From positions 24,353-88,352 of the forward strand of contig VBAL01000112.1 in NCBI GenBank assembly GCA_005888595.1: 64,000 bases of DNA, in the 5' to 3' direction. Below the pieces are notes generated by a model that saw only the letters and a program-made list of their open reading frames with translations, ran no database searches and was not told where the DNA came from. Both the position numbers and the translations under genes were made by a program. Positions 2,328 to 59,986 of the stretch are shown piece by piece (the stretch's first letter is position 1; every line of letters starts with the position of its first letter). The stretch is from Candidatus Segetimicrobium genomatis (lineage in GTDB: Bacteria > Sysuimicrobiota > Sysuimicrobiia > Sysuimicrobiales > Kaftiobacteriaceae).

Positions 2328-2404
2328 GGAATTGTAAATTGTGGATTGTGAATTGTGAATTGAACATCAATGCCTCAAAATCCACAATTGACAATCCACA
2401 ATTT
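2328..2404. repeat. Tandem-heptamer hairpin, TGAATTG family
   Basis: Left arm 2328-2362: ggaattg taaattg tggattg tgaattg tgaattg. Right arm 2377-2404: aaaatcc acaattg acaatcc acaattt. Fills the darA-stop to holB-start spacer. Same word family as 59918-59986. Confidence 0.85.
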
Positions 2405-2742
2405 CAAAATCGTTCCATACGTTCAACCTGCAATACGAATACAATCGCCCCGCCCACCTCTACCTTGACGGGGTAGGTCACGTAGGAGTCGACCGGTTCT
2501 ACGGCGGGCGGCATTGGGCTGACGAACTGCTCGCGGCGGTGGGCGGAACGCTGAATGACCCCCAACACCTGGTCAATCTGTGCGTCTTCCACTCCGATCA
2601 GGATGGTAGAGTTGCCCTCGCGCAGGAAGCCTCCGGTGCTGGCCAGCATCGTCGCGTTGAACCCGTCCTCGGTGAGGGCATCGATCAGCCGCCCCACGTC
2701 CTTCTCCTGCACAATGGCTAGGACGAGTCTGATGCCCGCCAC
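2404..2742 (-). CDS. darA: Cyclic-di-AMP receptor DarA/PstA (PII-like, DUF970), if translated separately from the GTG at 2742
   Basis: (M)AGIRLVLAIVQEKDVGRLIDALTEDGFNATMLASTGGFLREGNSTILIGVEDAQIDQVLGVI...VEVGGAIVFVLQVERMERF. It matches B. subtilis YaaQ/DarA along its whole length (from memory). Gene order tmk-darA-holB is as in B. subtilis. Confidence 0.7.
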   Translation of the reverse strand: MAGIRLVLAIVQEKDVGRLIDALTEDGFNATMLASTGGFLREGNSTILIGVEDAQIDQVLGVIQRSAHRREQFVSPMPPAVEPVDSYVTYPVKVEVGGAIVFVLQVERMERF

Positions 2743-3387
2743 CCCCTCGCGCCCAGGAGCCCCTCCACCAGCCGGACGACCTCGTCGTGCACAACGCCCT
2801 GGGCGCGACTGCCGTCCACGACGCGGCGCGATTGCGAGGAATCCTGACCTCACGCGCGTGTGGAAACTCAGGCTTTCCTGCTCGAGACGATCGCCGTGGC
2901 CCGGCCGGCCCTCTTTGCCCGCGGTCTGGCGCGCGCGCCGGAGTCCCACGGCCGGATCGATGTCCAGCAGAATGGTCAGATCCGGCATCACGCCCCGAGT
3001 GGCCCCTTCGTTTACCCGGCGCACCAGCTCCACGTCCAGACCGCGGCCGAATCCCTGGTAGGCGATCGACGCATCAACATATCGCTCTGACAGCAACACC
3101 CGCCCGTCCCGCAGCGCCGGTTCCACCACTTCTGCGACAAACTGCGCACGTGAGGCGGCAAACAGCAGCATCTCCGTCACCGGAGTCATCGCGGTGTTGC
3201 TCGCGTCCAGGAGCATGGCCCGGATGCGCTCGCCGATTGCCGTGCCGCCGGGTTCACGCGTGTACACCACCTGGAACCGGTCGCGGAGACGTTCATGAAG
3301 GAGGCGCGCCTGCGTGGTTTTGCCGGCGCCTTCGGGGCCCTCAATTGTAATGAAAATTCCTCGTCTGGCCATTTGCCCTAACTCCAA
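2404..3387 (-). CDS. tmk: dTMP kinase (Tmk) ORF that runs in frame into a DarA/PstA-type c-di-AMP receptor domain (apparent fusion, or a frameshifted tmk plus a separate darA)
   Basis: N-terminal ~200 aa are thymidylate kinase (FITIEGPEGAGKTTQ, YTREPGGT, DRYVDASIAYQG). The C-terminal 112 aa are DarA-like. The ~40-aa junction (PRRGRQSRPGRCARRGRPAGGG...) is low-complexity. The canonical Tmk C-terminus RVVDGSRAQGVVHDEVVRLVEGLLG is readable only in another frame. The likely true start is the ATG at 3372; 3387 is TTG. Confidence 0.85.
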   Translation of the reverse strand: MELGQMARRGIFITIEGPEGAGKTTQARLLHERLRDRFQVVYTREPGGTAIGERIRAMLLDASNTAMTPVTEMLLFAASRAQFVAEVVEPALRDGRVLLSERYVDASIAYQGFGRGLDVELVRRVNEGATRGVMPDLTILLDIDPAVGLRRARQTAGKEGRPGHGDRLEQESLSFHTRVRSGFLAIAPRRGRQSRPGRCARRGRPAGGGAPGREGVAGIRLVLAIVQEKDVGRLIDALTEDGFNATMLASTGGFLREGNSTILIGVEDAQIDQVLGVIQRSAHRREQFVSPMPPAVEPVDSYVTYPVKVEVGGAIVFVLQVERMERF

Positions 3388-3391
3388 ATTG

Positions 3392-3500
3392 CAAATCTAT
3401 TGAATCTGTTCAATCTATTGGATCTATTGAATCAACTGCGGACATTCACCCGTGTGATAGATTCAATAGATTCAACGGATCCAATAGATTCAATAGATTC
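3392..3500. repeat. Tandem 9-mer hairpin, AATCTATTG family
   Basis: Left arm 3392-3433: aatctattg aatctgttc aatctattg gatctattg aatc. Right arm 3457-3500: gatagattc aatagattc aacggatcc aatagattc aatagattc. Lies between the R3H-ATPase stop and the tmk start. Confidence 0.85.
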
Positions 3501-3536
3501 GACATGGAAACGGGGGAGACTACCTCAATCGGCCAG

Positions 3537-6518: not shown

Positions 6519-6544
6519 GAAACTACGGGACTACAGTCCCGTTG

Positions 6545-9141: not shown

Positions 9142-9256
9142 TACATTGTTGCAGGTTGGCGCCCTTCGACTCGCTTCGCTCGCTCAGGGCACTCGACTCG
9201 CCGACCACGAAAACGGCCGAAGGCCACGAGCGAGCCGCGTAGCGGCGAGTCGAGTG
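9142..9256. repeat. Dispersed-type GC-rich repeat (reads PFDSLRSLRA in one frame) plus a perfect 14-bp inverted repeat
   Basis: cccttcgactcgcttcgctcgctcagggc at 9162-9190. CACTCGACTCGCCG (9190-9203) pairs perfectly with CGGCGAGTCGAGTG (9243-9256). The 39-nt loop contains a GGCC-GAA-GGCC mini-hairpin. Lies in a divergent promoter region. Confidence 0.7.
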
Positions 9257-9331
9257 GGAACGGGGGAACACGGGAACGCGTAGGGAAATAGGGGATTGAT
9301 ATGAGTCGCGAGTCACGAGACACGAGTCACG
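9256..9331. repeat. Two tandem-heptamer runs (GGGAACN, then GAGTCRC) spanning the DUF192 gene start
   Basis: 9256-9297: gggaacg ggggaac acgggaa cgcgtag ggaaata ggggatt. 9303-9331: gagtcgc gagtcac gagacac gagtcac. The second run encodes N-terminal residues SRESRDTSH. Confidence 0.7.
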
Positions 9332-9792
9332 CCCTCTCCCGGCTGGTCGGGATCTTGGTGATCACCGGGCTGCTGCTGGGAATCCCAGTCCACGCCGCCG
9401 TCACCTTCAAGCGCGGATTCCTCACGATCACCCAAGGCCGGGCACGGGTGTTCTTGAACGTCGAGGTCGCTGACACCCCCCAGAGCCGCGAGCAGGGATT
9501 GGGCAACCGCACCTCTCTCGCCAGTAACGCCGGTATGCTGTTCGTCTTCGAGACAACCAACCTGTGGAGCTTCTGGATGAAGGACACCCTGATCCCGTTG
9601 ACTGTCGCATTCATCAATGAGCAATGGGAGATTGTGGACCTCATAGACATGGCCGTGGAAACGAATCCGCAAAAGCCGTCCATGATCTACAAGGCGGCGA
9701 AGCCCGCCCTCTATGCGCTGGAGGTCAACCAAGGGTACCTCCGGCAGAAGAACATCACCGTCGGCGCCAAGGTCGTCTACACTCCCCGCTAA
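9301..9792 (+). CDS. DUF192 domain-containing protein (membrane-anchored/secreted)
   Basis: GLGNRTSLASNAGMLFVFETTNLWSFWMKDTLIPLTVAFIN...ALEVNQGY is typical of DUF192/COG1430. N-terminal hydrophobic segment LVGILVITGLLLGIPVHA. Shine-Dalgarno GGGGA lies 5 nt upstream of the ATG. Confidence 0.8.
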   Translation: MSRESRDTSHALSRLVGILVITGLLLGIPVHAAVTFKRGFLTITQGRARVFLNVEVADTPQSREQGLGNRTSLASNAGMLFVFETTNLWSFWMKDTLIPLTVAFINEQWEIVDLIDMAVETNPQKPSMIYKAAKPALYALEVNQGYLRQKNITVGAKVVYTPR

Positions 9793-9796
9793 ATCG

Positions 9797-9862
9797 GCAG
9801 TCGGGCGGTCGGGACAGAGCCAGAATCTTATCTTCCGCGACTGCCCGACTACGCGACCGCCC
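9797..9862. repeat. Octamer-word hairpin, CGACTGCC/GGCGGTCG family
   Basis: AGTCGGGCGGTCG (9799-9811) pairs with CGACTGCCCGACT (9838-9850), 12 of 13 bp. Same word family as 12578-12703. Confidence 0.7.
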
Positions 9863-9917
9863 AGATGCTGCACCGCTCGACCGCCTGACCGCCGTGCTAT
9901 CATGACTGCACACCCCG

Positions 9918-12183: not shown

Positions 12184-12193
12184 TTGCCTCACA

Positions 12194-12268
12194 GTCATTG
12201 CGAGCCCGAAGGGCGAAGCAATCTCCGTAACGGGGATCGCCACGGCCCTGCGGGCCTCGCGATGACAG
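12194..12268. repeat. Composite palindromic element (GTCATTGCGAG...CTCGCGATGAC), copy 1
   Basis: gtcattgcgagcccgaagggcgaagcaatctcc-gtaacg-gggatcgccacggccctgcgggcctcgcgatgacag. The outer arms and two inner mini-hairpins are complementary. The same element occurs at 35015-35095 and 54959-55137. Confidence 0.85.
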
Positions 12269-12292
12269 CACAGCCTAGTTTCCGATATCATT

Positions 12293-12338
12293 GTCACGAC
12301 TTGTCGCGTTACCGCGTTCCCGCGATTCCGCGTTCCCG
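12293..12338. repeat. Tandem-heptamer run, CGCGTTC family (single arm)
   Basis: gtcacgacttgtcgcgttaccgcgttcccgcgattccgcgttcccg. A shorter run of the same word follows element copy 2 at 35101-35125. Confidence 0.65.
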
Positions 12339-12391
12339 TTAGTTGTCCGTCTTATCCCCATTGTCCACAACGGCGGAACGAAAGTTCCGAA

Positions 12392-12421
12392 TTGACCCCT
12401 TTCCCCGTGGCATGGTAGAAA
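12392..12421 (+). promoter_or_regulatory. Candidate promoter inside the 527-bp spacer upstream of nadE
   Basis: TTGACC (12392-12397), an 18-nt spacer, then TGg-TAGAAA (12413-12421). It would produce a leader of about 300 nt before nadE. Confidence 0.3.
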
Positions 12422-12577
12422 CGTATTCGCCAGCGGAAAGCGGCTGTTCGAGGTGGGAGTGAGGTACCGCTCGTTCCGCAGTGCCTCCGGCGCTGCGCGG
12501 TCGACGGCAACCCGGCCTAACTCAGCGAAGCGCACCCGCTGGCCTAATACTTTGAGGCGCCGGAGGCGCCACCTACC

Positions 12578-12703
12578 GCTGTCGCGCGGTCGCGCTGTCG
12601 GGCGGTCGCGTGACAACCTCCGGACGAACATCCGGCCGATACCCTTGTCCCAGGCCCCCTGAGACCGTCCCGCGACTGCGCGATTCCGCGACTGCCCGAC
12701 TGC
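12578..12703. repeat. Octamer-word hairpin, GCTGTCG/GGCGGTCG versus CGCGACTG family
   Basis: The left arm (12578-12613) is built of cgctgtcg/cgcggtcg units. The right arm (12671-12703) is cgcgactg cgcgattc cgcgactg cccgactg. GCTGTCGGGCGGTCGCG (12593-12609) pairs with 12687-12703 at 15 of 17 positions. It ends 8 nt before the longest-ORF TTG (12711) and 26 nt before the preferred nadE ATG (12729). Confidence 0.75.
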
Positions 12704-12728
12704 TGTATAATTGGTTGCTGGAGCCAGG

Positions 12729-14477: not shown

Positions 14478-16945
14478 GCATCGGGACGCGCTCGCGCTAC
14501 CACATCACCGTAGCGCCGGCGCCCCTCCCCTTTTCGCCACCTGTTCGCTTCCATCTCCAAGAAAACGACGAGTACGTCAAGTACGGGCATCCCCCGTTTC
14601 CCACCCCGGGGCGGGGCGATCCCTACTGGACGCCCGAGATTATCTCGCAGACCTGGTTCATGGCGGAAAAAGGCAAGATCCCCATCTCGGGAGCAGGCTA
14701 TGGCGGACCGTTTGCCGGACCGGGATTCGATGCCATCTGGCTGGATATGTCAGAGATCGTACGGCCCACACGCGACGGCATTCATGGACGCGAGTACATC
14801 TCGACCAGTGTGGATCTGGGGCGCAAGCTCCCGTTTCTCACCGTCGGGGCGGGCGGTGTCGAGGACGCGCTACCGGCGCTGCTCGAGCTTCCGATCCCCA
14901 TCCTCTTCAATCCGTTTCCGTTTCCCACCACGCAACGCGCGCCGGTCCTTGCCGTGGCGCACGCCGCCCAAACGCTGCGGACCCTGGCCATCCTCACACC
15001 GGATCAGTGGAGCGAGGACTTGCGCGACGACGCGGTCATCGCGCCACGACTGGCGGCGCGCGATCTGGACCGCTACGAATCGCTCTGGCAGCGTGCCCGG
15101 TACGTGGAGCTGGACGGCGGAGATGCATTCGCCGCCGCGCGCCTCAAAGCCGCTCGTCCGGACACCGTGATTGGGTGGTACGTTCCGCTTGGCTCCACCG
15201 ACGGCGCAGCGGTGGAGCAGATGGTGCGGGCGGGAGCGGAGGTCATCCACTTGTACGCCGACGAGTACGGGCAGAGCGGCCGAGGCTTTCTCGCGGATGG
15301 GCTGCGCGCCATTCACCGCTATCTGGTCGAGCGCGGGATCCGCGACGAAGTCACGCTGATCACGAGCGGCGGCATCGCCGCCGCCGAGCATGTCCCCAAA
15401 GCCATCGTGTGCGGCGCGGATGCGGTGGCGATTGACTTCACGCTGGTCGTCGCCTTCGGGTGCGGCCTGTGGGCCGACAAGTCGTACTGCCCTGCCGAAA
15501 ACGGCGAGTTCGACCCGGGATGGGGCGCGCAGCGCCTGGTGAATTTGATGGCGGCCTGGCGCGATCAGCTCCTGGAGTGTCTGGGGGCGATGGGCATGCG
15601 CGAGGTGCGCCGGCTGCGCGGAGAAGCCGGCCGCGCGATCTTTCAGCCGCAGGAGGAAGAGGCCTTCCGCTCGCTCTTCAGGCAGACCCGGCCCCTAGCG
15701 CCCCCGCCCGAGGAGACCGAGGTTCCCACGATGGGGGATCTGCGCTGGACGCCGGACCTCTTACAGGCCACCTGGACGCAGGCAGACAGCGGCCAGTTGC
15801 CGGCGCGAGGGGAGTATCGCGTGGGGAAGTCGGGCGGCGGATTCGACATCCTGCGGTTCACCTGTGAAGAGGACGGCTACCGCGCGGTTGCGCAGATCCC
15901 GGACCGCGAGATCGATCTCGCCCTCGATCTGAACCGGCGCCGCAATGAACCACAGATTGCGATCTCGGTGCCATGGTACGGCGGCGGGATGTCGTTCGGC
16001 TCGGTCAGCCTGCAGACGATGCTGGCCCGCGCCATCGCGGCCGTGGAGATAAACACCTTCACCTCTACGGGTGAGGGCGGATACCCCGACGAACTCGCGC
16101 CGTACGCCGATCACGTGATCACACAGGTGGCCACGGGTCTGTTCGGTGTGCGCGAGGAGACCGTGCAGCGCGCCCGGTTCGTGGAGTTCAAATACGCGCA
16201 GGGTGCCAAGCCCGGGCTGGGCGGGCATCTGCTCGGCGGCAAAACGACCGAGGTGGTGGCCCTGATGCGCGAGGCCGTGGCGTGGACGTCGTTGTTTTCG
16301 CCGTTTCCATTCCACAGCGTGTACTCGGTCGAGGATCATAAGAAGCATGTGGATTGGATCCGGACCATCAATCCTGACGCGCTGGTCGCGGTAAAAGTCT
16401 CCACACCTACGGACGTGGACATGGTCGCGGTGGGGATCTACCATGCCGGTGCGCACATTGTGCACCTCGATGGTGGCTACGGTGGCACCGGCGCGGCGCC
16501 TGAGATCGCCAAGAAGAATATCGCGATGCCGATCGAGTACGCCATCCCGAAGGTACACAACTTCCTGCTCAACGAGGGCATCCGCGACGAAATCGTGCTG
16601 GTGGCATCTGGAGGGATCCGCACCGCCTATGACATCGCCAAATGCGTGGCGTTGGGCGCAGACGGCGCTGTGATCGGAATGGCCGACCTAGTCGCCATCG
16701 GGTGCACACGCCTGGCGGACTGTGAAAAAGGCCAGGGATGCCCGTTTGGCATCACGACGACGGATCCTGAGCTATCCAAACTCATCGACCCGGCCTGGGG
16801 CGCCATCCGCATTGCCAACCTGTACCGGGCTTGGGCCCGGCAGTTGCGTGATCTCCTGAAATCGCTCGGTCTGCGGTCGATCCGTGAGCTGCGCGGCCGC
16901 ACCGACTTGCTTGTGTATCTTGAGGCCGGACATGGCACACGCTAG
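14474..16945 (+). CDS. Glutamate-synthase-family protein with two TIM-barrel (FMN/GltB central domain-like) modules
   Basis: 823 aa. The C-terminal half is a canonical GltB FMN domain (WYGGGMSFGSVS, KYAQGAKPGLGGHLLG, HLDGGYGGTGAAP, ASGGIRTAYDIAKCVALGADGAVIG). The N-terminal half is a degenerate copy (TSGGIAAAEHVPKAIVCGADAVAIDF). Its ATG overlaps the nadE TGA (ATGA). Confidence 0.8.
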   Translation: MSIGTRSRYHITVAPAPLPFSPPVRFHLQENDEYVKYGHPPFPTPGRGDPYWTPEIISQTWFMAEKGKIPISGAGYGGPFAGPGFDAIWLDMSEIVRPTRDGIHGREYISTSVDLGRKLPFLTVGAGGVEDALPALLELPIPILFNPFPFPTTQRAPVLAVAHAAQTLRTLAILTPDQWSEDLRDDAVIAPRLAARDLDRYESLWQRARYVELDGGDAFAAARLKAARPDTVIGWYVPLGSTDGAAVEQMVRAGAEVIHLYADEYGQSGRGFLADGLRAIHRYLVERGIRDEVTLITSGGIAAAEHVPKAIVCGADAVAIDFTLVVAFGCGLWADKSYCPAENGEFDPGWGAQRLVNLMAAWRDQLLECLGAMGMREVRRLRGEAGRAIFQPQEEEAFRSLFRQTRPLAPPPEETEVPTMGDLRWTPDLLQATWTQADSGQLPARGEYRVGKSGGGFDILRFTCEEDGYRAVAQIPDREIDLALDLNRRRNEPQIAISVPWYGGGMSFGSVSLQTMLARAIAAVEINTFTSTGEGGYPDELAPYADHVITQVATGLFGVREETVQRARFVEFKYAQGAKPGLGGHLLGGKTTEVVALMREAVAWTSLFSPFPFHSVYSVEDHKKHVDWIRTINPDALVAVKVSTPTDVDMVAVGIYHAGAHIVHLDGGYGGTGAAPEIAKKNIAMPIEYAIPKVHNFLLNEGIRDEIVLVASGGIRTAYDIAKCVALGADGAVIGMADLVAIGCTRLADCEKGQGCPFGITTTDPELSKLIDPAWGAIRIANLYRAWARQLRDLLKSLGLRSIRELRGRTDLLVYLEAGHGTR

Positions 16946-17040
16946 TGAAGTTGGAAAGTTGAAGAGTTGGAGAGTTGGAGAGTCTCAAGCCAATCCGGCG
17001 GTCAACCCTTCAACTTTCCAACTTTCCAACTTCCCAACTC
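16946..17040. repeat. Tandem-octamer hairpin, AGTTGGAG family
   Basis: Left arm 16946-16984: tgaagttg gaaagttg aagagttg gagagttg gagagtc. Right arm 17007-17040: ccttcaac tttccaac tttccaac ttcccaac tc. It starts 1 nt after the TAG and ends 12 nt before the next ATG. Confidence 0.9.
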
Positions 17041-17052
17041 AGGTAGTGAGAC

Positions 17053-19764: not shown

Positions 19765-19874
19765 TTTGTGATTAGTGATTCGTGATTAGTGATTCGTTAA
19801 ATACCACCTCCGCGTAGCGAATTTACAGGTTTCCAAACATCGTGGCGAATCACGAATCACAAATCACGAATCAC
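19761..19874. repeat. Tandem-heptamer hairpin, GTGATTC family
   Basis: Left arm 19761-19796: gtgattt gtgatta gtgattc gtgatta gtgattc, overlapping the TGA stop at 19762-19764. Right arm 19846-19874: cgaatca cgaatca caaatca cgaatca c, overlapping the MFS start. Same word as the solo arm at 47735-47763. Confidence 0.9.
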
Positions 19875-24424: not shown

Positions 24425-24447
24425 GATGGAACGGCGTGCAGACAACT

Positions 24448-24530: not shown

Positions 24531-24547
24531 TATCGGAGGTTTCAAGA

Positions 24548-25584: not shown

Positions 25585-25590
25585 GTCATT

Positions 25591-36920: not shown

Positions 36921-36928
36921 CGCGCCCT

Positions 36929-37123: not shown

Positions 37124-37135
37124 GCCGTTTCCAGC

Positions 37136-37771: not shown

Positions 37772-37894
37772 GACTGCAAGTTAAGGTGCTGCCTCCGTGT
37801 TTTCTGCCTCTGCTTGATCTATGGCACTCACATATGCGTCACGCAGCTGTTTGGCAGCTTCAAGGGCTCTCTCCAGCTCTCGCTCCTGTTCTAA

Positions 37895-38710: not shown

Positions 38711-38845
38711 ATCTGTCTATTACCTCCCTTTGGTGAAGTTTCGATCCGCGGTCCGCTCGCGTCAACTCATTATGTCCTCTTTTTTCGCATCTGTCAGTTG
38801 CGGAGGGTCATGGCGGAGAGGGCGCAGGGTGAGGGGTTCTTTGCT

Positions 38846-39605: not shown

Positions 39606-39703
39606 CCAGAGAACGCAGAACGCACAGCGCAGAACGCAGACGGCAATGACAGAACATTTCTTCATCTTTCTGCGTTCTGCGTGCTGCATTCTGCGTTCTA
39701 CAG
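39606..39703. repeat. Tandem-heptamer hairpin, ACGCAGA/TCTGCGT family, between murT and gatD
   Basis: Left arm 39606-39643: ccagaga acgcaga acgcaca gcgcaga acgcaga cgg. Right arm 39669-39703: tctgcgt tctgcgt gctgcat tctgcgt tctacag. Confidence 0.9.
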
Positions 39704-41805: not shown

Positions 41806-41942
41806 CCTGGGACCAGGCGGCGAAGGCACCGAGGGACCAAGCAAGCTATAGAAACGGCGCAAAACGACGGGAAGGGGAGCCCCGCAGCACGAATGCGGGT
41901 TTCTTTTTTTGCCTGGTACCCAGGTCCCCTGGTCACCTGGTC
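41806..41942. repeat. GGGACCA/GGTCCC-family repeat arms flanking a canonical terminator
   Basis: Left arm 41806-41842: cctgggaccaggcggcgaaggcaccgagggaccaagc. Right arm 41911-41942: gcctggtacccaggtcccctggtcacctggtc. Confidence 0.75.
41879..41910 (+). terminator. Rho-independent terminator of the BFN gene
   Basis: CCCGCA-gcacgaa-TGCGGG, followed by TTTCTTTTTTT (41900-41910). Confidence 0.7.
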
Positions 41943-43857: not shown

Positions 43858-46676
43858 CGTCTGCCTCCGGACCGTTCACGCGCGAAGAACTCGAGAAACT
43901 CGCCCATCGTCTTGCGGATCGCCTCGATGTCAGTAAGGTTGGCGAATGTAGCGTTTGGGTAACGCCGGGCGCCATCCTGGACGTACTCCGAGAAACCTCC
44001 CACGCCGCGGCCACCAGGATTGACGTGGCCGTAGCAGACCATATCGAACCGGCTCAGGGCCTCTTCGTACCGGCGCTTGGCGAGGTCGAAGTCGCCTGAG
44101 GACGTTTCACCATCGGTGAAGACGAACAGAAACTTGTCGTGCTCGGTGACCCCGTGGAGCAACTCCATGGCCCTTTCGAAGCCCGCCGAGATGTGGGTGC
44201 CCCCGGACGACTCTACGCAGAAAAACTCGTCACGGGTCTTCTCTTCGGCCACGTCCTGGAATACGACGTAACGCCGAAGGTTCGTTGGGTAGCGGCGCTC
44301 CAGATAGTACCAGAGCACGAAGATGGTCTTGCGCACCAGGGCGAGATATTCTCCCCGCATCGACCCGGAGATGTCCAGCACGTAGACCTCCAGGGAGCGG
44401 TGGTTCTCATAGGCGGCCGGATCTTCCACAAAGTACCAGCCGTCCTGGGCCAGCTCCACGTCGTACTCGGCCGTCCCCCGCTCCCGGATGTTCCGGAGCA
44501 AGGACTGCACCATCGTCTCCTCCAGGTTCAGGTCCGGCCGCAGGCCGATCCGGTCGAGGTCGTCCAGATCCGGCAGGGCGTCGGTCTGAACCTCTCCGCT
44601 GCGCGACGGCTCGTGGAACACCGGCAGCTCAATTTCCTGCAGCAGCACTTCCTGCGCCAAACGGACAAACTCGTCAAAATCCAATTCGACCTTGATCTCG
44701 CGGCCGTGGTGGTCCCCGCCGAGCAGTCCACCCAACACCTGGATCTCCTCATCGCCGGTCTGGCCGGACCCGCCTGCACCGCCCTTGCCGCCCCGGCCGG
44801 TGCCGCGGGCCAGCACCGGGGCATCCTCCCCATACTTGAGGGTGGGTAGGTCCAGCGTGGCAATCTGCGTCTTGACCTTGCCGTCGATGATCAGTTCTTT
44901 CTGCTGGATGAGCTCATTGAGGTGCTGCTTCAAATACTCGCGCAGCAGCTGGTCGTGCTTGTGTTGGGCGATATGGCCCCGATGGATTCTCATGCTCTCG
45001 CCTTTTAGCTCCACCAACGTCAAGGCCCGTCTATCGCGTCTATTGCGTCTGTCGCGACTTCTGCTGTGGGACGCGAAAGACGCGATGATGGCGCTGCGGT
45101 ATAGCACCTTCAGCAGCTCCTGACTCTTCGTATCGAGCTCCTCGCTCTTCTCGTATAGCCGCAGCAAATTCTTGATCTTGTTGAACACGATCTCGTTGAT
45201 GACCGGGCGCAGGTGCTCGTTGTCCTTGTAACTCATGCGCAGCATCTCGTCCTTGCGCTCCAGCAGCACGTTCTCGAACGCCACCCGGCCCTGGCGGCTG
45301 ATCTGCCGCTTGGCCACCATGATCCCCTCCACCTCATCCACCAGTTCCTTCTCCGTGCTCGAGAGCGGCTCTCCGGCCACGTTGCGGGAGGCCGCTTCCA
45401 GGTAGTTGAGATACAGGTTCTGGCCGTAATCGTAGAAGTGGGTCGGCACGATCTCCTCAACGATGAGGTCGATCTTCTTGTTGATGAACTCCACCTTGGT
45501 CTCCTCAAATTGCTTGAGGAGCTCCTTGAGGTTGAGATCCTTCATGGACTGGTGCTCGAATGTACGCTCCACGGCCGCGGAGATGATGTCCAGGTCCACG
45601 CACTTCCCCGCCAGGGTGTAGGCGTACGAGAAGGCGTCTTCGAAGAACCGCGGCGACAGCCCCCGCAGCCCCTGCGACTCCTCGCGCGTCTTCAACGCAT
45701 AGCGGGCGGCGAGTTCGTACACATCCCCGGGGACGTGCTTCTCCTCGTCGCGGATGCGGTTGGCCCGCTCCACCAGCGTCTTGTAGATCTTCTTTTCCCC
45801 CTCCGCGTCGACGTTGTAGGGGAAGTCGATCTTGTGGATGCGGCCGCGCAGCGGCTCCATGATGTCCTCAGAGACGAACACCAGGTACTCGGGATAGTTA
45901 GTGTGGCCGATAACCACCTCGTCGACGTGCACCGTCGGGAAGTTGGCCAGGTCGATGCGCTTGGACTGAATGAGCTCCAGCAACAACGACAGCAGCTGGC
46001 GGCGGCTCTTGAAAACCTCCGTCCAATCCAGAATGCCGCGGTTGCCCCAGATGATCTTCCCCTCGAAGTCGTATGCCTCCGGATCGTAGGTGGAACCGCG
46101 CTCCTTCAGCATCGCGAAGTTGATGTTGCCCACGAAGTTGGTGATGTCTTCGCGGCGCAGGTCGGTGGGCGTGTGCTTGGCGACCCCGATCTTGTCCCTC
46201 GCGGAGATGTAGATGCGTTCCACCGGGAGGCGCTTCCACCCGCCCTCCCGGGCCGACAGCCGGTCGCAGACCGGACAGGGCACCGCTTCCTCGTGCCAGT
46301 GCAATCCGTGCTCCTCCCGTGCGTCCGGCGGGACGAGGTCGAAGGGATGCTGGTGGAAGGGGCATCCCTGAATCGCATACACCGCGCCGTCGGCCGTATG
46401 AGAGTACTCCTCCAGCTTGCGCTTGAGATGATCCACGGTCATCGACTTGCCGGATCCCTGCGGACCCACCAGCAGCAGGAGGCGCCGCTCCATGGACATG
46501 GAGTGCGCACGGAAGAAGGCCATGATCGCCTCCAGTTGCTTCTCCATACCGTAGATGCCTTCGAAAACGCGATCGCGGCCGTAGAACTCAATCATGTCGG
46601 AGATGTAGTGGTGGGTGGTGCGCCGCAGCCGCCGGTCGTGGCGCGCCTCCTGGAGAAATTCCTGCACCGTATTCAT
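43815..46676 (-). CDS. prkA: PrkA-type AAA+ Ser protein kinase fused in frame to a YhbH/YeaH (DUF444, vWA-like) protein
   Basis: Single 953-aa ORF. Residues 1 to about 535 are PrkA-like (LLLVGPQGSGKSM Walker A). Residues 562-953 begin MRIHRGHIAQHK (ATG at 44993), are collinear with B. subtilis YhbH, and match its length (392 aa). The 26-aa linker is encoded by a 9-mer repeat hairpin. Confidence 0.8.
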   Translation of the reverse strand: MNTVQEFLQEARHDRRLRRTTHHYISDMIEFYGRDRVFEGIYGMEKQLEAIMAFFRAHSMSMERRLLLLVGPQGSGKSMTVDHLKRKLEEYSHTADGAVYAIQGCPFHQHPFDLVPPDAREEHGLHWHEEAVPCPVCDRLSAREGGWKRLPVERIYISARDKIGVAKHTPTDLRREDITNFVGNINFAMLKERGSTYDPEAYDFEGKIIWGNRGILDWTEVFKSRRQLLSLLLELIQSKRIDLANFPTVHVDEVVIGHTNYPEYLVFVSEDIMEPLRGRIHKIDFPYNVDAEGEKKIYKTLVERANRIRDEEKHVPGDVYELAARYALKTREESQGLRGLSPRFFEDAFSYAYTLAGKCVDLDIISAAVERTFEHQSMKDLNLKELLKQFEETKVEFINKKIDLIVEEIVPTHFYDYGQNLYLNYLEAASRNVAGEPLSSTEKELVDEVEGIMVAKRQISRQGRVAFENVLLERKDEMLRMSYKDNEHLRPVINEIVFNKIKNLLRLYEKSEELDTKSQELLKVLYRSAIIASFASHSRSRDRRNRRDRRALTLVELKGESMRIHRGHIAQHKHDQLLREYLKQHLNELIQQKELIIDGKVKTQIATLDLPTLKYGEDAPVLARGTGRGGKGGAGGSGQTGDEEIQVLGGLLGGDHHGREIKVELDFDEFVRLAQEVLLQEIELPVFHEPSRSGEVQTDALPDLDDLDRIGLRPDLNLEETMVQSLLRNIRERGTAEYDVELAQDGWYFVEDPAAYENHRSLEVYVLDISGSMRGEYLALVRKTIFVLWYYLERRYPTNLRRYVVFQDVAEEKTRDEFFCVESSGGTHISAGFERAMELLHGVTEHDKFLFVFTDGETSSGDFDLAKRRYEEALSRFDMVCYGHVNPGGRGVGGFSEYVQDGARRYPNATFANLTDIEAIRKTMGEFLEFFARERSGGRRWTRIAKSSTASKR
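45028..45091. repeat. Tandem 9-mer hairpin (CGTCTATYG family) inside the prkA-yhbH junction
   Basis: cgtctatcg cgtctattg cgtctgtcg at 45028-45054. ATCGCGTCT at 45033-45041 is complementary to AGACGCGAT at 45079-45087. Read through in frame as SRSRDRRNRRDRR. Confidence 0.75.
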
Positions 46677-47055: not shown

Positions 47056-47733
47056 TCATACCGCCGAGCGGTGCACCGTCGCCGGTTCGAGCGCAACATA
47101 CACGGCGTGAGCCTGATCGAACGAGACCTCTCGGGATGCCTGTTCGGTCCGTACCCGCATCGAACCATCGGCGGCCACATCGATCACTTCCACCAGCGCG
47201 CCCGGCAGCAGCCGCGCCTCCGACAGCCCACGCAGTACCGAAGGAACGCTGTCCCTCAGGCGCACAACCACGCCACGCTCGCCTTGGTGCATGTCCGAGA
47301 GCAGCGGATGATGCATCGCTTCGACGGCGCCTTCGCGGGTGGGGATGGGATCGCCGTGCGGGTCGTAGGTCGGATCGCCCAGCGACTGCGCAATACGCTC
47401 CTCGAGTTCTTCCGAGATGACGTGCTCTAACCGTTCGGCCTCCGCGTCGACACGGTCCAGGCCGACGCCCAGGTGGCGGGCCAGGTAGAGCTCGATCAGC
47501 CGGTGATGGCGGATCACCTCCAGAGCGATCTTCTCGCCACCCGAGGTGAGCTGCACCGCGTGGTACGGCGTATGATCCACCAGCTGCAATCGCGCCAGCT
47601 TTTTGATCATGTTCGACGCCGAGGCAGGCGCTACGTTCAGGCGCGCCGCGACGGCGTTCGTCGTCACCACCTCACCGGCCTGGCGGAGCTTGTAAATCAC
47701 CTTCAAATAATCTTCGATGGCTTGCGTTAACAT
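47056..47733 (-). CDS. DtxR/MntR-family metal-dependent transcriptional regulator with a FeoA/SH3-like C-terminal domain
   Basis: IEDYLKVIYKL...TTNAVAARLNVAPASASNMIKKLARLQLV...GGEKIALEVIRHHRLIELYL...DAEAERLEHVIS. Confidence 0.88.
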   Translation of the reverse strand: MLTQAIEDYLKVIYKLRQAGEVVTTNAVAARLNVAPASASNMIKKLARLQLVDHTPYHAVQLTSGGEKIALEVIRHHRLIELYLARHLGVGLDRVDAEAERLEHVISEELEERIAQSLGDPTYDPHGDPIPTREGAVEAMHHPLLSDMHQGERGVVVRLRDSVPSVLRGLSEARLLPGALVEVIDVAADGSMRVRTEQASREVSFDQAHAVYVALEPATVHRSAV

Positions 47734-47734
47734 C

Positions 47735-47763
47735 GTGATTCGTGACTCGTGATTCGTGATTCG
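47735..47763. repeat. Solo arm of the GTGATTC heptamer family
   Basis: gtgattc gtgactc gtgattc gtgattc g, between the ZIP stop and the regulator start. No complementary arm nearby. Confidence 0.7.
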
Positions 47764-51168: not shown

Positions 51169-51203
51169 TGACCAGGGAACCGGGGGAACCAGGGACCAGG
51201 AAT
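51169..51203. repeat. Solo arm of the GGGAACCA family
   Basis: gtgaccagggaaccgggggaaccagggaccaggaa. Confidence 0.65.
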
Positions 51204-53707: not shown

Positions 53708-53711
53708 GAGC

Positions 53712-53759
53712 GGGACTGGGGACTGGGGACTGGAACAAAACGGTAGTAACTAGTCCAGG
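53712..53759. repeat. GGGACTG heptamer run with a short complementary arm
   Basis: gggactg gggactg gggactg g (53712-53733) ... ctagtccagg (53750-53759). Lies between fadN and fadA. Confidence 0.7.
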
Positions 53760-54952: not shown

Positions 54953-54958
54953 GGTATT

Positions 54959-55137
54959 GTCATTGCGAGCCCGTAAGGCCGAAGCAATCTCCCCTGTTGC
55001 GAGGCCCTGCAGGGGCCGAAGCAATCTCCTTTCCAGAGGAGATCGCTTCGCTCCGCTCGCGATGACAGAATGGGGCAGAGATCGCCACGGCCCTTCGGGC
55101 CTCGCGATGACAGACGGGTCCGACCGCTCGCAATGAC
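54959..55137. repeat. Composite palindromic element, expanded copy 3 (about 2.5 units)
   Basis: It fills the fadA-fadE spacer with units gtcattgcgag..gaagcaatctcc (x2), gagatcgc..ctcgcgatgacag (x2) and a terminal ctcgcaatgac. Spurious ORFs here read ...LLRPYGLAMT / ..RERSEAISS. Confidence 0.85.
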
Positions 55138-56935: not shown

Positions 56936-56940
56936 ACGCC

Positions 56941-56980
56941 GATCCTGGATCTAGGATCTAGGATCCAGCATCCAGGATCC
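56941..56980. repeat. Near-loopless palindrome of the GATCCTG heptamer family
   Basis: gatcctg gatctag gatctag gatccag catccag gatcc. Lies between fadE and the acyl-CoA ligase gene. Confidence 0.85.
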
Positions 56981-56986
56981 GTTGGA

Positions 56987-58672
56987 GTGACCTTGATGTC
57001 TGAAGTCGCCACCAACCGGCCGTGGCTTCGCTTCTACGAGCCCGGCGTGCCCCACACGCTGAGCTACCCGCGCGCCACCGTCCAATCACTGCTGGACGAT
57101 AGTGCGGCGCAATTCGGCGACAGGAGCGCCGCCGTGTTCTTCGGCGCCGCCCTTTCCTACCGCGCCCTGCGAATCCTGGTAGACCGCTTTGCCGGCGCGT
57201 TGCACCGGTTGGGCGTGCAACCGGGCGACCGCGTCTCGCTGCACCTGCCCAACTGCCCGCAGTTTCTCGTCGCCTATTATGGCGCGCTCCGGGCCGGCGC
57301 GGTCGTCGTGCCGTTCAACCCTCTCTACGTGGAACGGGAGATCGAACACCAGTTGATCGACAGCGGCGCGGACGTGGCGGTGACGCTCGATGTGATCTAT
57401 CCCCGGCTGGCCGACGCGCGGCCGCGAACCCGTCTGCGGGAGGTCATCGTCACCTCTATCAACGCGTACTTTCCCCCACTCTTGCGGTGGTTGTACCCAC
57501 TCCGGGCGTGGCGGGAGGGTCATCTCGTACGCGTGCCCCGCGGACGGGGGGTGCACCGGTTTAGTGACTTGCTCGACGCGGCCGTGCCTGCGCCACAGGT
57601 CGCCATCGAACCGGAGCGGACCGCGATGTTGCTCTACACCGGCGGCACGACCGGGATCCCCAAGGGGGCAATGCTCTCGCATCGCAACGTGGTCTGTAAT
57701 GTGCTCCAGGCGCGCGCCTGGTTTACCGGGCTGCGCCCGGGCCAAGACTCCACCCTGGCCGTGATTCCCTTCTTCCACTCCTATGGGATGACTGCGGCGA
57801 TGAATCTTTCCATCTCCGCGGGGGCGCGGCTGATTCTGTTGCCGCGGTTTCAGGTGGAGATCGTCCTGGGGGCGATCGCGAAATACCGGCCACAGCTCTT
57901 CCCCGGAGTGCCGACCCTCTACACCGCCATCATCTCGCATCCTCACGTGGCAGCGTACAGCCTCCGCTCCGGGATGGCATGCATCTCGGGCGCGGCCCCG
58001 CTGCCGGCGGAGGTACAAACGCGCTTTGAGCATCTCACCGGCGGGAAGCTGGTGGAAGGCTACGGCCTGACCGAAGCCTCTCCCGTCACCCACGCCAATC
58101 CGATCTCCGGACTCCGGAAGATCGGCAGCATCGGCGTTCCGTTTCCCGACACCGATGCGCGGATCATGGATGGCTCCGGCGGGCGGGTCCTACCGCCCGG
58201 AGAGGTGGGTGAACTTGTCATTCGCGGCCCGCAGGTGATGCAGGAGTACTGGAACCAGCCGGCGGAAACGGCACAGATACTCCGCGACGGCTGGCTTTTT
58301 ACCGGGGATCTCGCGAGGATGGACGCCGACGGCTTCTTCTACATCGTCGACCGAAAAAAGGAGATGATCATCACCGGCGGCCTCAACGTCTTCCCGCGAG
58401 AGGTGGAAGAAGTCCTCTACGCGCACCCCGGCGTACTGGAAGCGGCAGCCATCGGCGTGCGGGACCCTTACCGGGGCGAAGCGGTGAAAGCGTTCGTCGT
58501 GCTCCGAGAGGGGGCGCACGCCACCGCGGACGAGATCACTGAGCACTGCCGCCGGAATCTCGCGCCATACAAGGTACCCCGCGCGGTCGAATTCCGGACT
58601 CAGTTGCCCAAGTCCGTCGTGGGAAAGATCCTACGCCGCGTACTGATGGAAGAAGAACGTGGCAAATACTAG
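56987..58672 (+). CDS. Long-chain fatty acid-CoA ligase
   Basis: AMP-binding motif LLYTGGTTGIPKGAMLSH. GYGLTE. TGDLARMDADGFFYIVDRKK. The start may instead be the ATG at 56996. Confidence 0.9.
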   Translation: MTLMSEVATNRPWLRFYEPGVPHTLSYPRATVQSLLDDSAAQFGDRSAAVFFGAALSYRALRILVDRFAGALHRLGVQPGDRVSLHLPNCPQFLVAYYGALRAGAVVVPFNPLYVEREIEHQLIDSGADVAVTLDVIYPRLADARPRTRLREVIVTSINAYFPPLLRWLYPLRAWREGHLVRVPRGRGVHRFSDLLDAAVPAPQVAIEPERTAMLLYTGGTTGIPKGAMLSHRNVVCNVLQARAWFTGLRPGQDSTLAVIPFFHSYGMTAAMNLSISAGARLILLPRFQVEIVLGAIAKYRPQLFPGVPTLYTAIISHPHVAAYSLRSGMACISGAAPLPAEVQTRFEHLTGGKLVEGYGLTEASPVTHANPISGLRKIGSIGVPFPDTDARIMDGSGGRVLPPGEVGELVIRGPQVMQEYWNQPAETAQILRDGWLFTGDLARMDADGFFYIVDRKKEMIITGGLNVFPREVEEVLYAHPGVLEAAAIGVRDPYRGEAVKAFVVLREGAHATADEITEHCRRNLAPYKVPRAVEFRTQLPKSVVGKILRRVLMEEERGKY

Positions 58673-58800
58673 TCTACCCAGTCTTCCTAGTCTCCCCGGT
58701 CTTCCCAGTCTAATTGCATCTCGATCAATGTTGGGCCATTGGACCAAGAAGACTAAGGAGACCAGGTAGACCAAGTAGACCAGGTAGACCAAGTAGACCG
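58671..58800. repeat. Tandem 9-mer hairpin, AGTCTNCCN/AGACCARGT family, between convergent genes
   Basis: Left arm 58671-58710: agtctaccc agtcttcct agtctcccc ggtcttccc agtc, overlapping the TAG stop. Right arm 58741-58800: ggaccaaga agactaagg agaccaggt agaccaagt agaccaggt agaccaagt agaccg. Confidence 0.9.
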
Positions 58801-58804
58801 TTAG

Positions 58805-58954
58805 TTAGCGGCCGAGAAAAAGGAAAACCCCAGCCGCCAGCGCGATTACGCCCATTACAACATCGCGAGAAGAAAAAGAAATGTTTGTGACTGCCGTCAG
58901 ACCCGTGAGGACCAACCAAATAGCCAGTAGCAGATTCCCGAGTTTCATCCGCAT
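58805..58954 (-). CDS. Small hydrophobic protein (49 aa), not in the ORF track
   Basis: MRMKLGNLLLAIWLVLTGLTAVTNISFSSRDVVMGVIALAAGVFLFLGR*. Two predicted TM helices. Strong Shine-Dalgarno GGGGGTGAGGTG about 8 nt upstream. The listed ORF 58725..58964 is in a different frame and reads through the repeat. Confidence 0.5.
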   Translation of the reverse strand: MRMKLGNLLLAIWLVLTGLTAVTNISFSSRDVVMGVIALAAGVFLFLGR

Positions 58955-59022
58955 CACTGTTCACCTCACCCCCTCGGAGTTGTAGCGCATCCGCGACTGC
59001 CAGACCGCGCGACGGCGCCTGC

Positions 59023-59898
59023 TTAGCGGAACATTTCCAGGAGCGGCCGTACGTCGGTCTCTTGGAGCTCCTCAGGCCACATCGGCAGCCTGGCGTGGGC
59101 TTTCTTCTGGCGCGGGTTGCGATAGATGACGCCCAGCGGCAGCCGGCCCCGGCGGTCGAAGTCGTTCAGCAGGTCCCACGCGGCATTCGGGTCACCCGGA
59201 TTGTGGCCGGCGGGGATCTCTTCCACGTGGGCTTTGTACCAATCATAGGTGTTGAACTTGTTGTATGTCACGCACGGAGAGAAATCGTTCACCATCGCAA
59301 AGCCTTTGTGCTGCATCGCCTCGGCGTAGATGCCGGCCGCGTGCTTGGGATCGCCGCTGAATGATTGCGCCACGAGCGTCGCGCCGGCGGTCAGAGCCAG
59401 CCGCAGCGGAGAAAACGGGGGCGGCGATTCCTCCGACCACTCCTTGATGTCCATGCCGCGGCCGTGAGTCGGCGAGTGCTGTCCCTTGGTGAGGCCATAG
59501 ACCCCGTTGTCCATGATGACCAGCAGCACTTCAGGATCACGCCGGCAGACATGGACAAAGTTTTCCACCCCGATGGCGAAGGTGTCCCCGTCGCCGGCCA
59601 GCGTGATCACCTTCAACTGCGGGTTGGCCATCTTGGCGCCCAGCGCGTACGCCAGGGCCCCGCCGTGCGTGCCGTGGAACGCGTTCCCGTTGAGGTAGTT
59701 GCGGATCTGCCCGGAGCAGCCGATCCCGCCCACCATCAGGACCTCGTACGGGGTGATCTCCAGCTTGGTCAGCGCCATCTTCAGAGCGGCCAGCACTCCG
59801 AAGTCGCCGCACCCCGGACACCATTGAATGCGGTGGCGGGCGACGGCGTTTTCGTCCCAGACTTTTGCAGAAACCTTTTGGGGCTTAACCTCTGCCAA
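59023..59898 (-). CDS. korB: 2-oxoacid:ferredoxin oxidoreductase subunit beta
   Basis: WCPGCGDFGVLAAL. GGIGCSGQ. TPP-binding GDGDTFAIG. Confidence 0.9.
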   Translation of the reverse strand: MAEVKPQKVSAKVWDENAVARHRIQWCPGCGDFGVLAALKMALTKLEITPYEVLMVGGIGCSGQIRNYLNGNAFHGTHGGALAYALGAKMANPQLKVITLAGDGDTFAIGVENFVHVCRRDPEVLLVIMDNGVYGLTKGQHSPTHGRGMDIKEWSEESPPPFSPLRLALTAGATLVAQSFSGDPKHAAGIYAEAMQHKGFAMVNDFSPCVTYNKFNTYDWYKAHVEEIPAGHNPGDPNAAWDLLNDFDRRGRLPLGVIYRNPRQKKAHARLPMWPEELQETDVRPLLEMFR

Positions 59899-59917
59899 CT
59901 AACTCACCCCTACACTA

Positions 59918-59986
59918 CATTGTGGATTGAAAATTGTGAATTGAACTACCCGTTTGGCAAATTAACAATTCACAATTCCGCAATCG
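59918..59986. repeat. Tandem-heptamer hairpin, TGAATTG family, between korA and korB
   Basis: Left arm 59918-59943: cattgtg gattgaa aattgtg aattg. Right arm 59958-59986: caaatta acaattc acaattc cgcaatc g. It abuts the korA stop. Confidence 0.85.

Follow-up and report, generated by a model that had tools for sequence, protein, structure and literature searches.

What is the origin of the long hairpins, with arms made of tandem 7-, 8- or 9-nt words, that occupy gene boundaries in a 64,000-nt stretch of contig VBAL01000112.1 from 'Candidatus Segetimicrobium genomatis' (the window)? An original prediction, made by reading the sequence, compared these structures with the short tandemly repeated repetitive (STRR) elements of cyanobacteria and with repetitive extragenic palindromic (REP) elements and bacterial interspersed mosaic elements (BIMEs), and regarded their design as undescribed. 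The comparisons were sensible, but similar arrays have been published in cyanobacteria (PMC2670836), Xanthomonas (PMC4692102) and the 23S rRNA intervening sequence (IVS) of Coxiella (PMC4990558). On other contigs, arms of window word families enclose genes of the PF05635 family. The window hairpins are probably copies, lacking an open reading frame (ORF) and comparable to MITEs (miniature transposable elements with inverted repeats), of a class of selfish insertion elements.

Tandem-word hairpins and their turnover

The predicted hairpins are real by three methods. At almost all the sites described, Tandem Repeats Finder (TRF) detected arrays with a period of 7, 8 or 9, mostly as twin arrays 20-60 nt apart. 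An inverted-repeat finder showed the array pairs to be complementary (arms of 20-40 nt, 82-100% complementarity), and folding gave long imperfect hairpins with stems of 14-45 pairs and a periodic 1x1 mismatch, once per word. The window contains 17 paired hairpins with arms of tandem words, in addition to one hairpin inside a coding region, one single-word hairpin and about seven unpaired arrays (Table 1). Several sites first taken for hairpins are unpaired arrays (28805-28831, 34345-34369, 12305-12338, 35105-35124, 47733-47763, 51171-51200 and 9256-9280), and the unpaired arms at 28805, 12293, 47735 and 51169 fold weakly (0 to -10 kcal/mol). The families named 'GGGATAA' and 'CGCGTTC' had been given period 7; both have period 8 by TRF.

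Neither the arrays nor their pairing can be attributed to chance. A detector requiring three or more occurrences of the same 5-mer, evenly spaced by 6-10 nt, found 29 arrays, compared with 0.73 in Markov-1 simulations, and 14 of these have an inverted partner, compared with none in the simulations. Stricter detectors, which combine an ungapped inverted repeat with periodicity, recovered only 7 and 18 elements. The minimum free energies (MFEs) of the hairpins have z-scores of -2.0 to -9.5 relative to dinucleotide shuffles. For the position of the arrays, a gene map was built from third-position guanine-plus-cytosine content (GC) and checked with Pfam. The non-coding 8.6% of the window contains 36 of the 46 arrays of period 7-9 on this map (p=7.5e-30), bearing out the expected enrichment in spacers, and 28 of 46 are intergenic on an uncorrected longest-ORF map (p=7e-18). 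The paired elements total 1707 nt, or 2.7% of the window and about one-third of its spacer DNA. Six elements (12190-12262, 12305-12338, 12577-12704, 16946-17040, 18114-18212 and 19755-19880) recur at 99-100% identity on independent contigs from four other samples, so the elements are not assembly artefacts.

All paired elements outside coding DNA lie past a stop codon or beside a start codon. The predicted distance of 0-7 nt between the upstream stop and the arm describes one portion of the elements: the first array base lies within 8 nt of the stop codon, or overlaps it, in 10 of 17, and at 12-36 nt in most others. Between co-directional genes, several elements leave only 11-13 nt to the next start (e.g. 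16946-17041), which argues against strong terminators.

Word families recur at unlinked loci, as predicted. Copies of the same family have the variant-word pattern and the arm/loop junction in common and differ in their loops; the two GATCCTG copies share AGGATCCAGCATCCAGGATCC, and the two TGAATTG copies share GAATTGAAC. These common patterns suggest that the copies have an ancestor in common and did not arise by slippage independently of one another. The higher-order periods of 14, 16 and 18 that TRF detected fit later growth via duplication of two-word blocks. The sense strand has 37 G.U pairs and the antisense strand 32, and there is no consistent difference in how well the two fold. Selection on sense-strand RNA was considered and rejected, given this absence of strand asymmetry in G.U pairs or MFE.

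The elements are indifferent to reading frames. Words with TGA or TAG supply the stop codon of the upstream gene (19762-19764, 58670-58672). The left arm of the hairpin at 27142 has words without a stop triplet, and the enolase ORF extends about 60 nt into it. Within a variable loop of its host protein, the element at 18114-18212, which was missing from the original list, adds about 25 amino acids in frame. The period-9 element at 45028-45091, initially placed at a gene boundary, lies inside a continuous ORF of 953 amino acids (43815-46676, minus strand) containing AAA_PrkA and the PrkA C-terminal domain together with DUF444 (YeaH/YhbH-like). PrkA and DUF444 are mostly encoded by distinct adjacent genes; here they form a single ORF because the element at their junction has no in-frame stop and is read through.

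The closest genome to the window is that of the soil metagenome-assembled genome (MAG) 'Bacillati bacterium ANGP1' (96% amino-acid identity for a glutamate-synthase-like protein), followed by MAGs of Candidatus Sysuimicrobiota, formerly CSP1-3 (78-80%). Synteny over 22 kb is found with contigs L005 (~95% nucleotide identity) and L006 and L007 (~75%), and BLAST blocks against L005 are interrupted at the element spacers. The 88-nt GGGACT hairpin (24446-24533) is cleanly missing in all three contigs, which show no seed sequence for it; at this site the element is flanked by CAACTG and GGAGG in the window, and CAATTG is directly joined to GGAGG in L005. The hairpin at 16946-17041 is present in the window and, in a longer form, in L005, and is missing from L006, L007, L009, L010 and L014. 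The element at 18114-18212 likewise occurs in the window and L005 only and is missing from six more distant orthologues. The absence of these two elements from five or six more distant relatives indicates that they are gains. The hairpin at 19755-19880 is missing from L005, and the L005 orthologue of the 12577 element is degenerate and decayed.

Four spacers shared with L005 carry other word families than in the window. At 6518, the window has a one-word GGGACT hairpin, L005 has a GGGAACGC hairpin, and L006 and L007 have GGGATCN hairpins. The spacer at 9792 contains a CGCGACTG hairpin in the window and a GCGAACA heptamer hairpin in L005. The spacer at 12190-12340 contains a palindromic element of an unrelated type and an unpaired CGCGTTCC array in the window and a GGGATTA hairpin in L005, and that at 25504 contains a GATCCTG hairpin in the window and an unpaired TCCCCNGT array in L005. 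A comparison of spacers with those of relatives had been proposed at the outset, and it reveals both presence/absence and replacement: the window hairpins are inserted DNA, gained, lost and replaced between close relatives.

PF05635 genes between tandem-word arms

A metagenome scan for GTGATTNGTGATTNGTGATT returned more than 120 contigs with GC ranging from 0.33 to 0.71, and the word forms a hairpin in at least 10 of the first 80, every loop being different. Among inverted arrays of the same word 0.3-6 kb apart, a spacing of 370-500 nt with an ORF of ~125 amino acids within was recurrent. Inverted arrays 300-700 nt apart enclose ORFs of PF05635 (E=1e-18 to 1e-35). This family is that of S23p, the intervening-sequence protein of 23S rRNA (Avd-like), a four-helix bundle of ~120-130 amino acids; the NCBIfam name for the protein of contig L127 is 'four helix bundle protein' (TIGR02436).

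The association was also examined without reference to arrays, taking the L127 protein as query and recovering the DNA around eight homologues. At all 11 distinct loci picked by protein homology alone, the gene is bracketed by inverted tandem-word arrays with a period of 7, 8 or 9. For the 18 distinct PF05635 genes in all DNA recovered, the bracket score exceeds the 95th percentile of 600 random segments in 14 cases. Under a strict score (95th percentile and periodic), 13 of the 18 genes pass, compared with 1 of the 600 controls (Mann-Whitney p=2.6e-10). No PF05635 gene was found in 1.15 Mb of loci gathered via an unrelated protein.

Three or four of the window word families are found around PF05635 genes. 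In L127 and L205, both of ~64% GC and both carrying further window word families, GTCTNCCCN and its complement enclose a PF05635 gene; the window elements 28333-28453 and 58669-58800 belong to this family. Another PF05635 gene of L205 is flanked by CTACGGGACTGGGGACTAGGGACTGGGGACTT and AAGTCCCCAGTCCCCAGTCCCTAGTCCCGTAG, with termini equal to those of window elements 24446-24533 and 6525-6542; CTACGGGACT...AGTCCCGTAG brackets this L205 gene, and the termini of 24446-24533, CGGGACT...AGTCCCGTAG, match this gene-bearing element. Contigs L206-L210 contain a PF05635 gene between CGTCTATTG arrays, the family of 45028-45091, with a sample-dependent copy number in the right arm that differs among the L206, L207 and L208 versions. 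In L091 and L197 the flanking arrays are GTGATTN. It had been observed that no mobile-element ORF accounts for the hairpins. This is correct within the window; other contigs of ~64% GC that share its word families have a PF05635 gene enclosed by arms of those families.

Gene-bearing copies, across word families, have a leader motif, TTGGGTCAT(T/A)G, past the left arm and ahead of the start codon. In the ORF-less hairpin 58669-58800, the loop retains GTTGGGCCATTG at the leader position seen in L127, L205 and L206. As separate observations, the conserved leader (A)ATAGCTCAGTTGGGTCAT resembles a tRNA D-arm (L127 6248-6258, L205 2930-2940, L206-L210 2939-2949) and is followed by a TATG(C/T)T hexamer at a fixed distance of 26 nt, and a leader-like sequence, ATTGGGTCATTG, occurs in the window at ~36999-37014 (minus strand).

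The sole solved structure that matches the L127 protein is 2GSC (XCC0516) from Xanthomonas campestris. A homologue of XCC0516 in X. campestris (L224 1124-1572, JAYIKR010000006.1) is located between a Biotin_lipoyl gene, read as accB, and a biotin carboxylase gene (accC), inside an otherwise conserved accB-accC operon. Its flanks carry GGGAATCGGGAGTGGAGAATCGGGAATCGG and the complement of this sequence, with 87% complementarity over 30 nt and a separation of 383 nt, so that one pair of the GGGAATC arrays known from Xanthomonas surrounds a PF05635 gene. The published description of these arrays makes no mention of a four-helix-bundle gene (Rehm et al. 2015, PMC4692102), and in a literature search such genes, or S23p genes, were tied to heptamer arrays only in the Coxiella IVS paper (PMC4990558). 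What is new here is the general link: tandem-word arms, window families included, bracket PF05635 genes.

Further arrays include mosaics of different heptamer arrays joined end to end (L020 2931-3037, L101 2034-2962, L139 3298-3524, L073 4952-5095). These are on contigs of Chloroflexota/Anaerolineae and others, which also carry long paired arrays such as GTTTCGA x9 with AACTCGA, indicating a phenomenon much wider than the window lineage. A small universal vocabulary of words across phyla was considered and rejected: ~2 Mb contained 270 canonical words, few of which are shared beyond the scan word.

Origin of the hairpins and relation to known elements

The closest likeness is to IVSs with an S23p ORF (Leptospira, Coxiella, Brucella, and 2GSC of Xanthomonas). 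As in the window, their inverted termini form a long stem around a loop, and full-length copies contain a ~120-amino-acid four-helix-bundle ORF in that loop, as do the gene-bearing elements of other contigs. Sporadic distribution and selfish character are also common to both. The window elements differ in location, being in mRNA spacers, on stop codons and in a coding loop rather than in rRNA helices 25 or 45 (Rfam detects no rRNA in the window, only a tRNA). They also differ in diversity and density, with at least 13 word families of periods 7, 8 and 9 in one genome and ~1 element per 3 kb, and in that the window copies are ORF-less. ORF-less variants of IVSs are known in Salmonella and Yersinia. 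Published work describes the Coxiella IVS as selfish, its stem enclosing the S23p ORF, and it contains tandem GACAGAT heptamers in its 5' region and stem, in a strain-variable number, with RNase III cutting at the first repeat; the same paper quotes an older idea that the IVS ORF serves mobility (PMC4990558).

The STRRs of filamentous cyanobacteria are likewise tandem heptamers dispersed in non-coding DNA and are reported to form intergenic hairpins within an operon, between hupS and hupL, where stabilisation or translational coupling has been guessed (PMC2670836). The heptamer unit is matched by the period-7 families of the window, not by those of periods 8 and 9. The window host is not a cyanobacterium, and hairpin pairing is the rule in the window. 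The array at 24495-24526 consists of CCCCAGT, which we take to be the STRR1 word; a literature search for it returned primers only.

In Xanthomonas, GGGAATC is highly enriched, 89-93% intergenic and near the upstream ORF, with 70-75 convergent pairs (Rehm et al. 2015, PMC4692102). Convergent intergenic pairs able to form stem-loops, nearer the upstream ORF, are equally a feature of the window, and the length of the Xanthomonas arrays differs among related species (PMC4692102). The Xanthomonas arrays have a single G-rich word, studied as a G-quadruplex former, whereas the window words are many and mostly not G-rich. No canonical GGGAATC array was found in the window or in loci L005-L204, where related G3 words are present.

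MITEs and the Rickettsia palindromic element (RPE) resemble the window elements in that non-autonomous hairpin insertions far outnumber ORF-bearing copies. RPEs insert in frame into protein-coding genes. MITEs differ in that the window elements have no target-site duplication, and their arms are tandem arrays rather than unique terminal inverted repeats; to our knowledge no transposase is associated with elements of the window type.

The window contains no PF05635 gene, and the best reading of the hairpins in it is that they are relatives of IVS-type selfish elements that lack the ORF. The full-length form would be a 0.45-0.75-kb cassette consisting of a tandem-word arm, a short leader, a four-helix-bundle gene of ~120-130 amino acids and an inverted arm, which is the architecture of 23S rRNA IVSs. 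The elements land directly after or onto stop codons, and occasionally inside coding loops. After insertion, the arms would grow and shrink by replication slippage, as suggested by the two-word higher-order units and by strain differences in copy number, and internal deletion would remove the gene and leave a bare hairpin. In the transcript, the arms may pair into a long imperfect duplex cleavable by RNase III, by analogy with rRNA IVSs, for which such cleavage is established. Cutting of this kind would allow insertions between cistrons to be tolerated, and 3' ends that are processed or stabilised would arise incidentally. ORF-less copies might spread in trans via a PF05635-linked function, which is the least certain step. 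Taken whole, this account is judged probable; the family relationship alone deserves greater confidence, and the direction of descent and RNase III processing deserve less.

Several observations weigh against this account. No PF05635 ORF is present in the window, so the link rests on other contigs, and L127, L205 and L206-L210 are assigned to the lineage only by ~64% GC, shared word families and one shared motif. A recognisable leader motif is kept in only one window loop, and a loose search of the window for the leader AGYTCANTTGGGYCAT gave matches at chance level. No target-site duplication was found at the filled/empty site 24446, and only two trivial 3-mers among 19 elements; likewise, neither a transposase nor defined element ends were found. 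We know of no activity of the PF05635 protein. In Coxiella, production of the S23p protein at all is improbable (PMC4990558). Descent may also run in the opposite direction, with the gene homing into the loops of existing hairpins. Fast slippage at the strain level, considered and rejected, is countered by the 16946 hairpin, which is identical in four strain-level contigs that are themselves 99-100% identical. Finally, paired hairpins occupy 16 of ~29 non-divergent spacers of at least 40 nt and none of 4 divergent ones, numbers too small for significance; placement in non-divergent spacers alone is also expected from a 3'-end function.

Such a function is central to the first rival explanation, local origin as simple-sequence hairpins, in which a short terminator-like stem expands by slippage, the expansion is carried over to the opposite arm by intramolecular template switching (quasipalindrome correction), and the hairpin is kept as a terminator without a U tract, an mRNA 3'-end stabiliser or a translational coupler. 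The position of the non-coding paired elements, all past a stop or near a start with none in a divergent spacer, agrees with this scheme, as do the very stable stems and the two-word periodicities, which suit slippage. A one-word hairpin of the GGGACT family exists at 6525-6542, canonical terminators are not enriched (14 terminator-like sites in 1-20 kb, compared with 10.4 expected), and the STRR literature proposes transcript stability or translational coupling (PMC2670836). Local origin would not account for identical words and variant patterns at unlinked loci, where at least eight shared pairs are observed and ~0.3 expected (our own estimate from 25 elements and ~1170 word classes), or for the 88-nt element in a spacer that has no seed in three relatives. 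Elements 11-13 nt from the next co-directional start, or within a coding region, are also difficult to reconcile with it. The hairpins are not conserved at orthologous spacers, where decay is seen, and have no sense-strand G.U bias, and the PF05635 genes bracketed by such arrays are left unexplained. Local origin is unlikely.

A second rival treats gene and hairpin as separate entities, the PF05635 gene being a cassette that homes into the loops of pre-existing long hairpins (rRNA helices as well as tandem-word hairpins) and the window hairpins having another origin and another means of spread. The arrays around PF05635 genes do consist of many unrelated words, the genes are found in either orientation with respect to their neighbours, and the GTGATTN word is associated with two protein subfamilies. 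In rRNA genes of the candidate phyla radiation (CPR), these ORFs are spread among insertion sites that elsewhere harbour different elements (PMC11270868). Against this, the stem of an rRNA IVS belongs to the insert, and the Coxiella heptamers lie within the IVS (PMC4990558). An ORF-less element of the window still has the leader motif that characterises copies with the gene. The closest sampled proteins, those of L127 and L205 (71% identity), share a word family, whereas a 57%-identical protein lies in another. Separate origins are quite unlikely.

It is very improbable that the hairpins are elements of the REP or REPIN (REP doublet forming hairpins) type, mobilised by a REP-associated tyrosine transposase (RAYT; IS200/IS605-like, Y1) encoded elsewhere in the genome. 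Like REPs, BIMEs and REPINs they are extragenic hairpin repeats found after stops and within operons, as singlets and inverted doublets of several families per genome, and the single clean filled/empty site lacks a target duplication. REP elements affect mRNA 3'-end stability in Escherichia coli. A single window arm is a tandem array and not a palindromic REP unit, failing a test for imperfect palindromes of 20-40 nt. GTAG or CTAC is present at the border of 8 of 19 elements (p=1e-3 to 4e-5), but GTAG is equally enriched before start codons in general (11 of 51), including those of genes without elements, so the border signal is confounded and unusable. No transposase is present among the window ORFs, and no Y1 transposase was noticed in the lineage-specific insertions of L006 (1.1 kb) and L009 (1.5 kb), where ORFs read by eye and without a profile scan resemble a Panacea/SocA-type antitoxin and an FAD-linked oxidase, respectively. 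The ORF actually found between such arms is PF05635, a four-helix-bundle protein and not an HUH/Y1 enzyme.

The remaining classes can be dismissed, in keeping with the original prediction for the first two: CRISPR arrays, since the words are contiguous without spacers and Rfam gives no CRISPR match at the gathering score, its only match being the tRNA; intrinsic terminators, since the stems are long (14-45 pairs), lack a U tract and are placed between close co-directional genes and in a gene, the sole canonical terminator being nested in the loop of another hairpin (~41874-41910); and integron attC sites, since R''/R' cores (RYYYAAC ... GTTRRRY) are found in 0 of 19 elements and the surroundings are syntenic housekeeping genes on both strands.

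Returning to the reading of the hairpins as ORF-less relatives of IVS-type elements, a broader version is possible but rather doubtful: STRRs, the GGGAATC arrays of Xanthomonas, the Sysuimicrobiota-like and Chloroflexota arrays and rRNA IVSs would all belong to one widespread selfish family with an autonomous form encoding PF05635. The PF05635 protein would recognise its own word array and promote the spread of the cassette and its ORF-less derivatives, with no known transposase or target duplication, and possibly through a hairpin RNA or single-stranded DNA intermediate by analogy with complexes of Avd and reverse transcriptase.

The evidence suggests that three puzzles kept apart for decades, namely the nature of STRR-type heptamers, the role of the rRNA-IVS ORF and the abundance of convergent GGGAATC arrays in Xanthomonas, are aspects of one kind of element: a tandem-word stem with or without a four-helix-bundle gene in its loop. 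If this is true, it provides a candidate protein for binding and mobility and natural filled/empty sites from which the insertion mechanism could be reconstructed, and RNase III sites between cistrons would be expected in many uncultured lineages. Annotators should then expect extension, truncation or fusion of ORFs, as with enolase and PrkA-DUF444, and broken metagenome assemblies.

Coordinates of the elements and other features of the window

Table 1. Tandem-word elements of the window (arms given as word and copy number; z, folding z-score)
Element	Coordinates	Strand	Arms, position and remarks
Hairpin	2329-2404		GAATTGT x4.9 (2329-2362), AATCCAC x3.4 (2379-2402); z=-5.2; abuts stop (2404-2406) of gene 2404-3387(-)
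Hairpin	3392-3502		AATCTATTG x4.4 (3394-3433), ATAGATTCA x4.9 (3457-3500); z=-9.5
Minimal one-word hairpin	6525-6542		GGGACT family; ACGGGAC-TACA-GTCCCGT
Unpaired array	9256-9280	+	GGGAACGC x3.1; divergent spacer
Hairpin	9796-9865		CGCGACTG/GGCGGTCG family; 3 nt past stop of 9301-9792
Unpaired array	12305-12338	-	CGCGTTCC x4.2; CGCGTTCC is the reverse complement of GGGAACGC
Hairpin	12577-12704		CGCGGTCG x4.2 (16-nt higher-order unit), CGCGACTG x4.1; z=-6.1
Hairpin	16946-17041		AGTTGGAG x4.4, CAACTTTC x3.6; z=-7.3; between two co-directional glutamate-synthase-like genes; preceding stop 16943-16945 abuts first array base
Hairpin	18114-18212		CGCGACNG words; inside ORF 17053-19764
Hairpin	19755-19880		GTGATTN x5 (14-nt higher-order unit), GAATCAC x4; z=-6.8; upstream stop TGA (19762-19764) within first word
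Hairpin	24446-24533		GGGACTN x3.6, CCCCAGT x4.6 (24495-24526); z=-8.2
Hairpin	25512-25590		GATCCTG/CCAGGAT family; inverted-repeat finder, folding
Hairpin	27142-27262		ACCAGGGN x9, CCTGGTNN x3.6; convergent spacer
Hairpin	28333-28453		GTCTNCCCN x4.4, GACCGGGNA x4.3; between convergent genes, touches both stops
Unpaired array	28805-28831	-	CCCNTTAT x3.4; period 8
Unpaired array	34345-34369	+	GGGATNAN x3; period about 8
Short unpaired array	35105-35124	-	CCCGCGNT x2.5; upstream of tRNA-Glu
Hairpin	39606-39703		AGAACGC x4.4, TTCTGCG x4.6; z=-9.3
Hairpin	41806-41942		GGGACCAGG/CCTGGTNN family; folding; loop contains canonical terminator, GC stem plus T7 (~41874-41910)
Hairpin	45028-45091		CGTCTATYG words; period 9, without stop codons
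Unpaired array	47733-47763	+	TCGTGAT x4.4 (GTGATTC family)
Unpaired array	51171-51200	+	ACCAGGGA-like; divergent spacer
Array with short partner	53709-53759		GGGACTG x3.1, partner CTAGTCC
Hairpin	56939-56982		GATCCTG words; 21-nt variant pattern AGGATCCAGCATCCAGGATCC common with 25512-25590
Hairpin	58669-58800		AGTCTNCCC x4.6, GACCAAGTA x6.4; stop TAG (58670-58672) within first word
Hairpin	59918-59986		TGAATTG family; arm pattern and arm/loop junction GAATTGAAC common with 2329-2404

A second and unrelated family of palindromic repeats, GTCATTGCGAG...GAAGCAATCTCC...CTCGCGATGAC, is also present in the window. Its copies are 75-115 nt in length with an MFE of -50 to -64 kcal/mol, and are located at 12190-12262, 35010-35100 and 54957-55068, with a possible fourth near 55095-55135. 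They begin from a few to ~40 nt past a stop codon, and the copy at 12190 is missing from L005. A perfect 21-nt inverted repeat not made of tandem words, CTAGTGCCGTACCAACTTGAT, occurs at 62016-62036 and 62093-62113, with 56 nt between its arms, in the spacer 61891-62110.

The 186 nt of non-coding sequence at 12341-12526, upstream of an NAD-synthase-like gene, are 80-82% identical to L006 and L007, compared with ~75% for the flanking genes. The region contains the palindrome GGAACGAAAGTTCC and promoter-like hexamers, with no convincing ORF, no Rfam match and a single compensatory pair across four sequences. A conserved promoter or leader is possible, as is an undescribed RNA.

At window position 18003, 21 nt (ACGGCCGAGCGCGACTTCCTG) are missing relative to the strain-level contigs L001 and L003. 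The equivalent residues are TTERDFL or a near variant in L005 and distant orthologues (TTERDLA in L022, TTERDFE in L027), and the gap could be either a true deletion variant or an assembly error.

The sequence GTAG, often CGTAG, lies within 30 nt upstream of the 11 starts of 51 already mentioned (~6% expected), for example those at 9301, 11608, 17053, 24548, 59987 and 62110. Downstream of tRNA-Glu(CTC), the region 35141-39000 has a lower GC of 0.59, small ORFs without a Pfam match and a 23-nt tandem repeat at 37001-37045, and is possibly an island or a decayed element. The ORF at 2404-3387 (minus strand) is a putative fusion, with thymidylate kinase at residues 15-187 and a cyclic-di-AMP receptor domain at residues 220-326.

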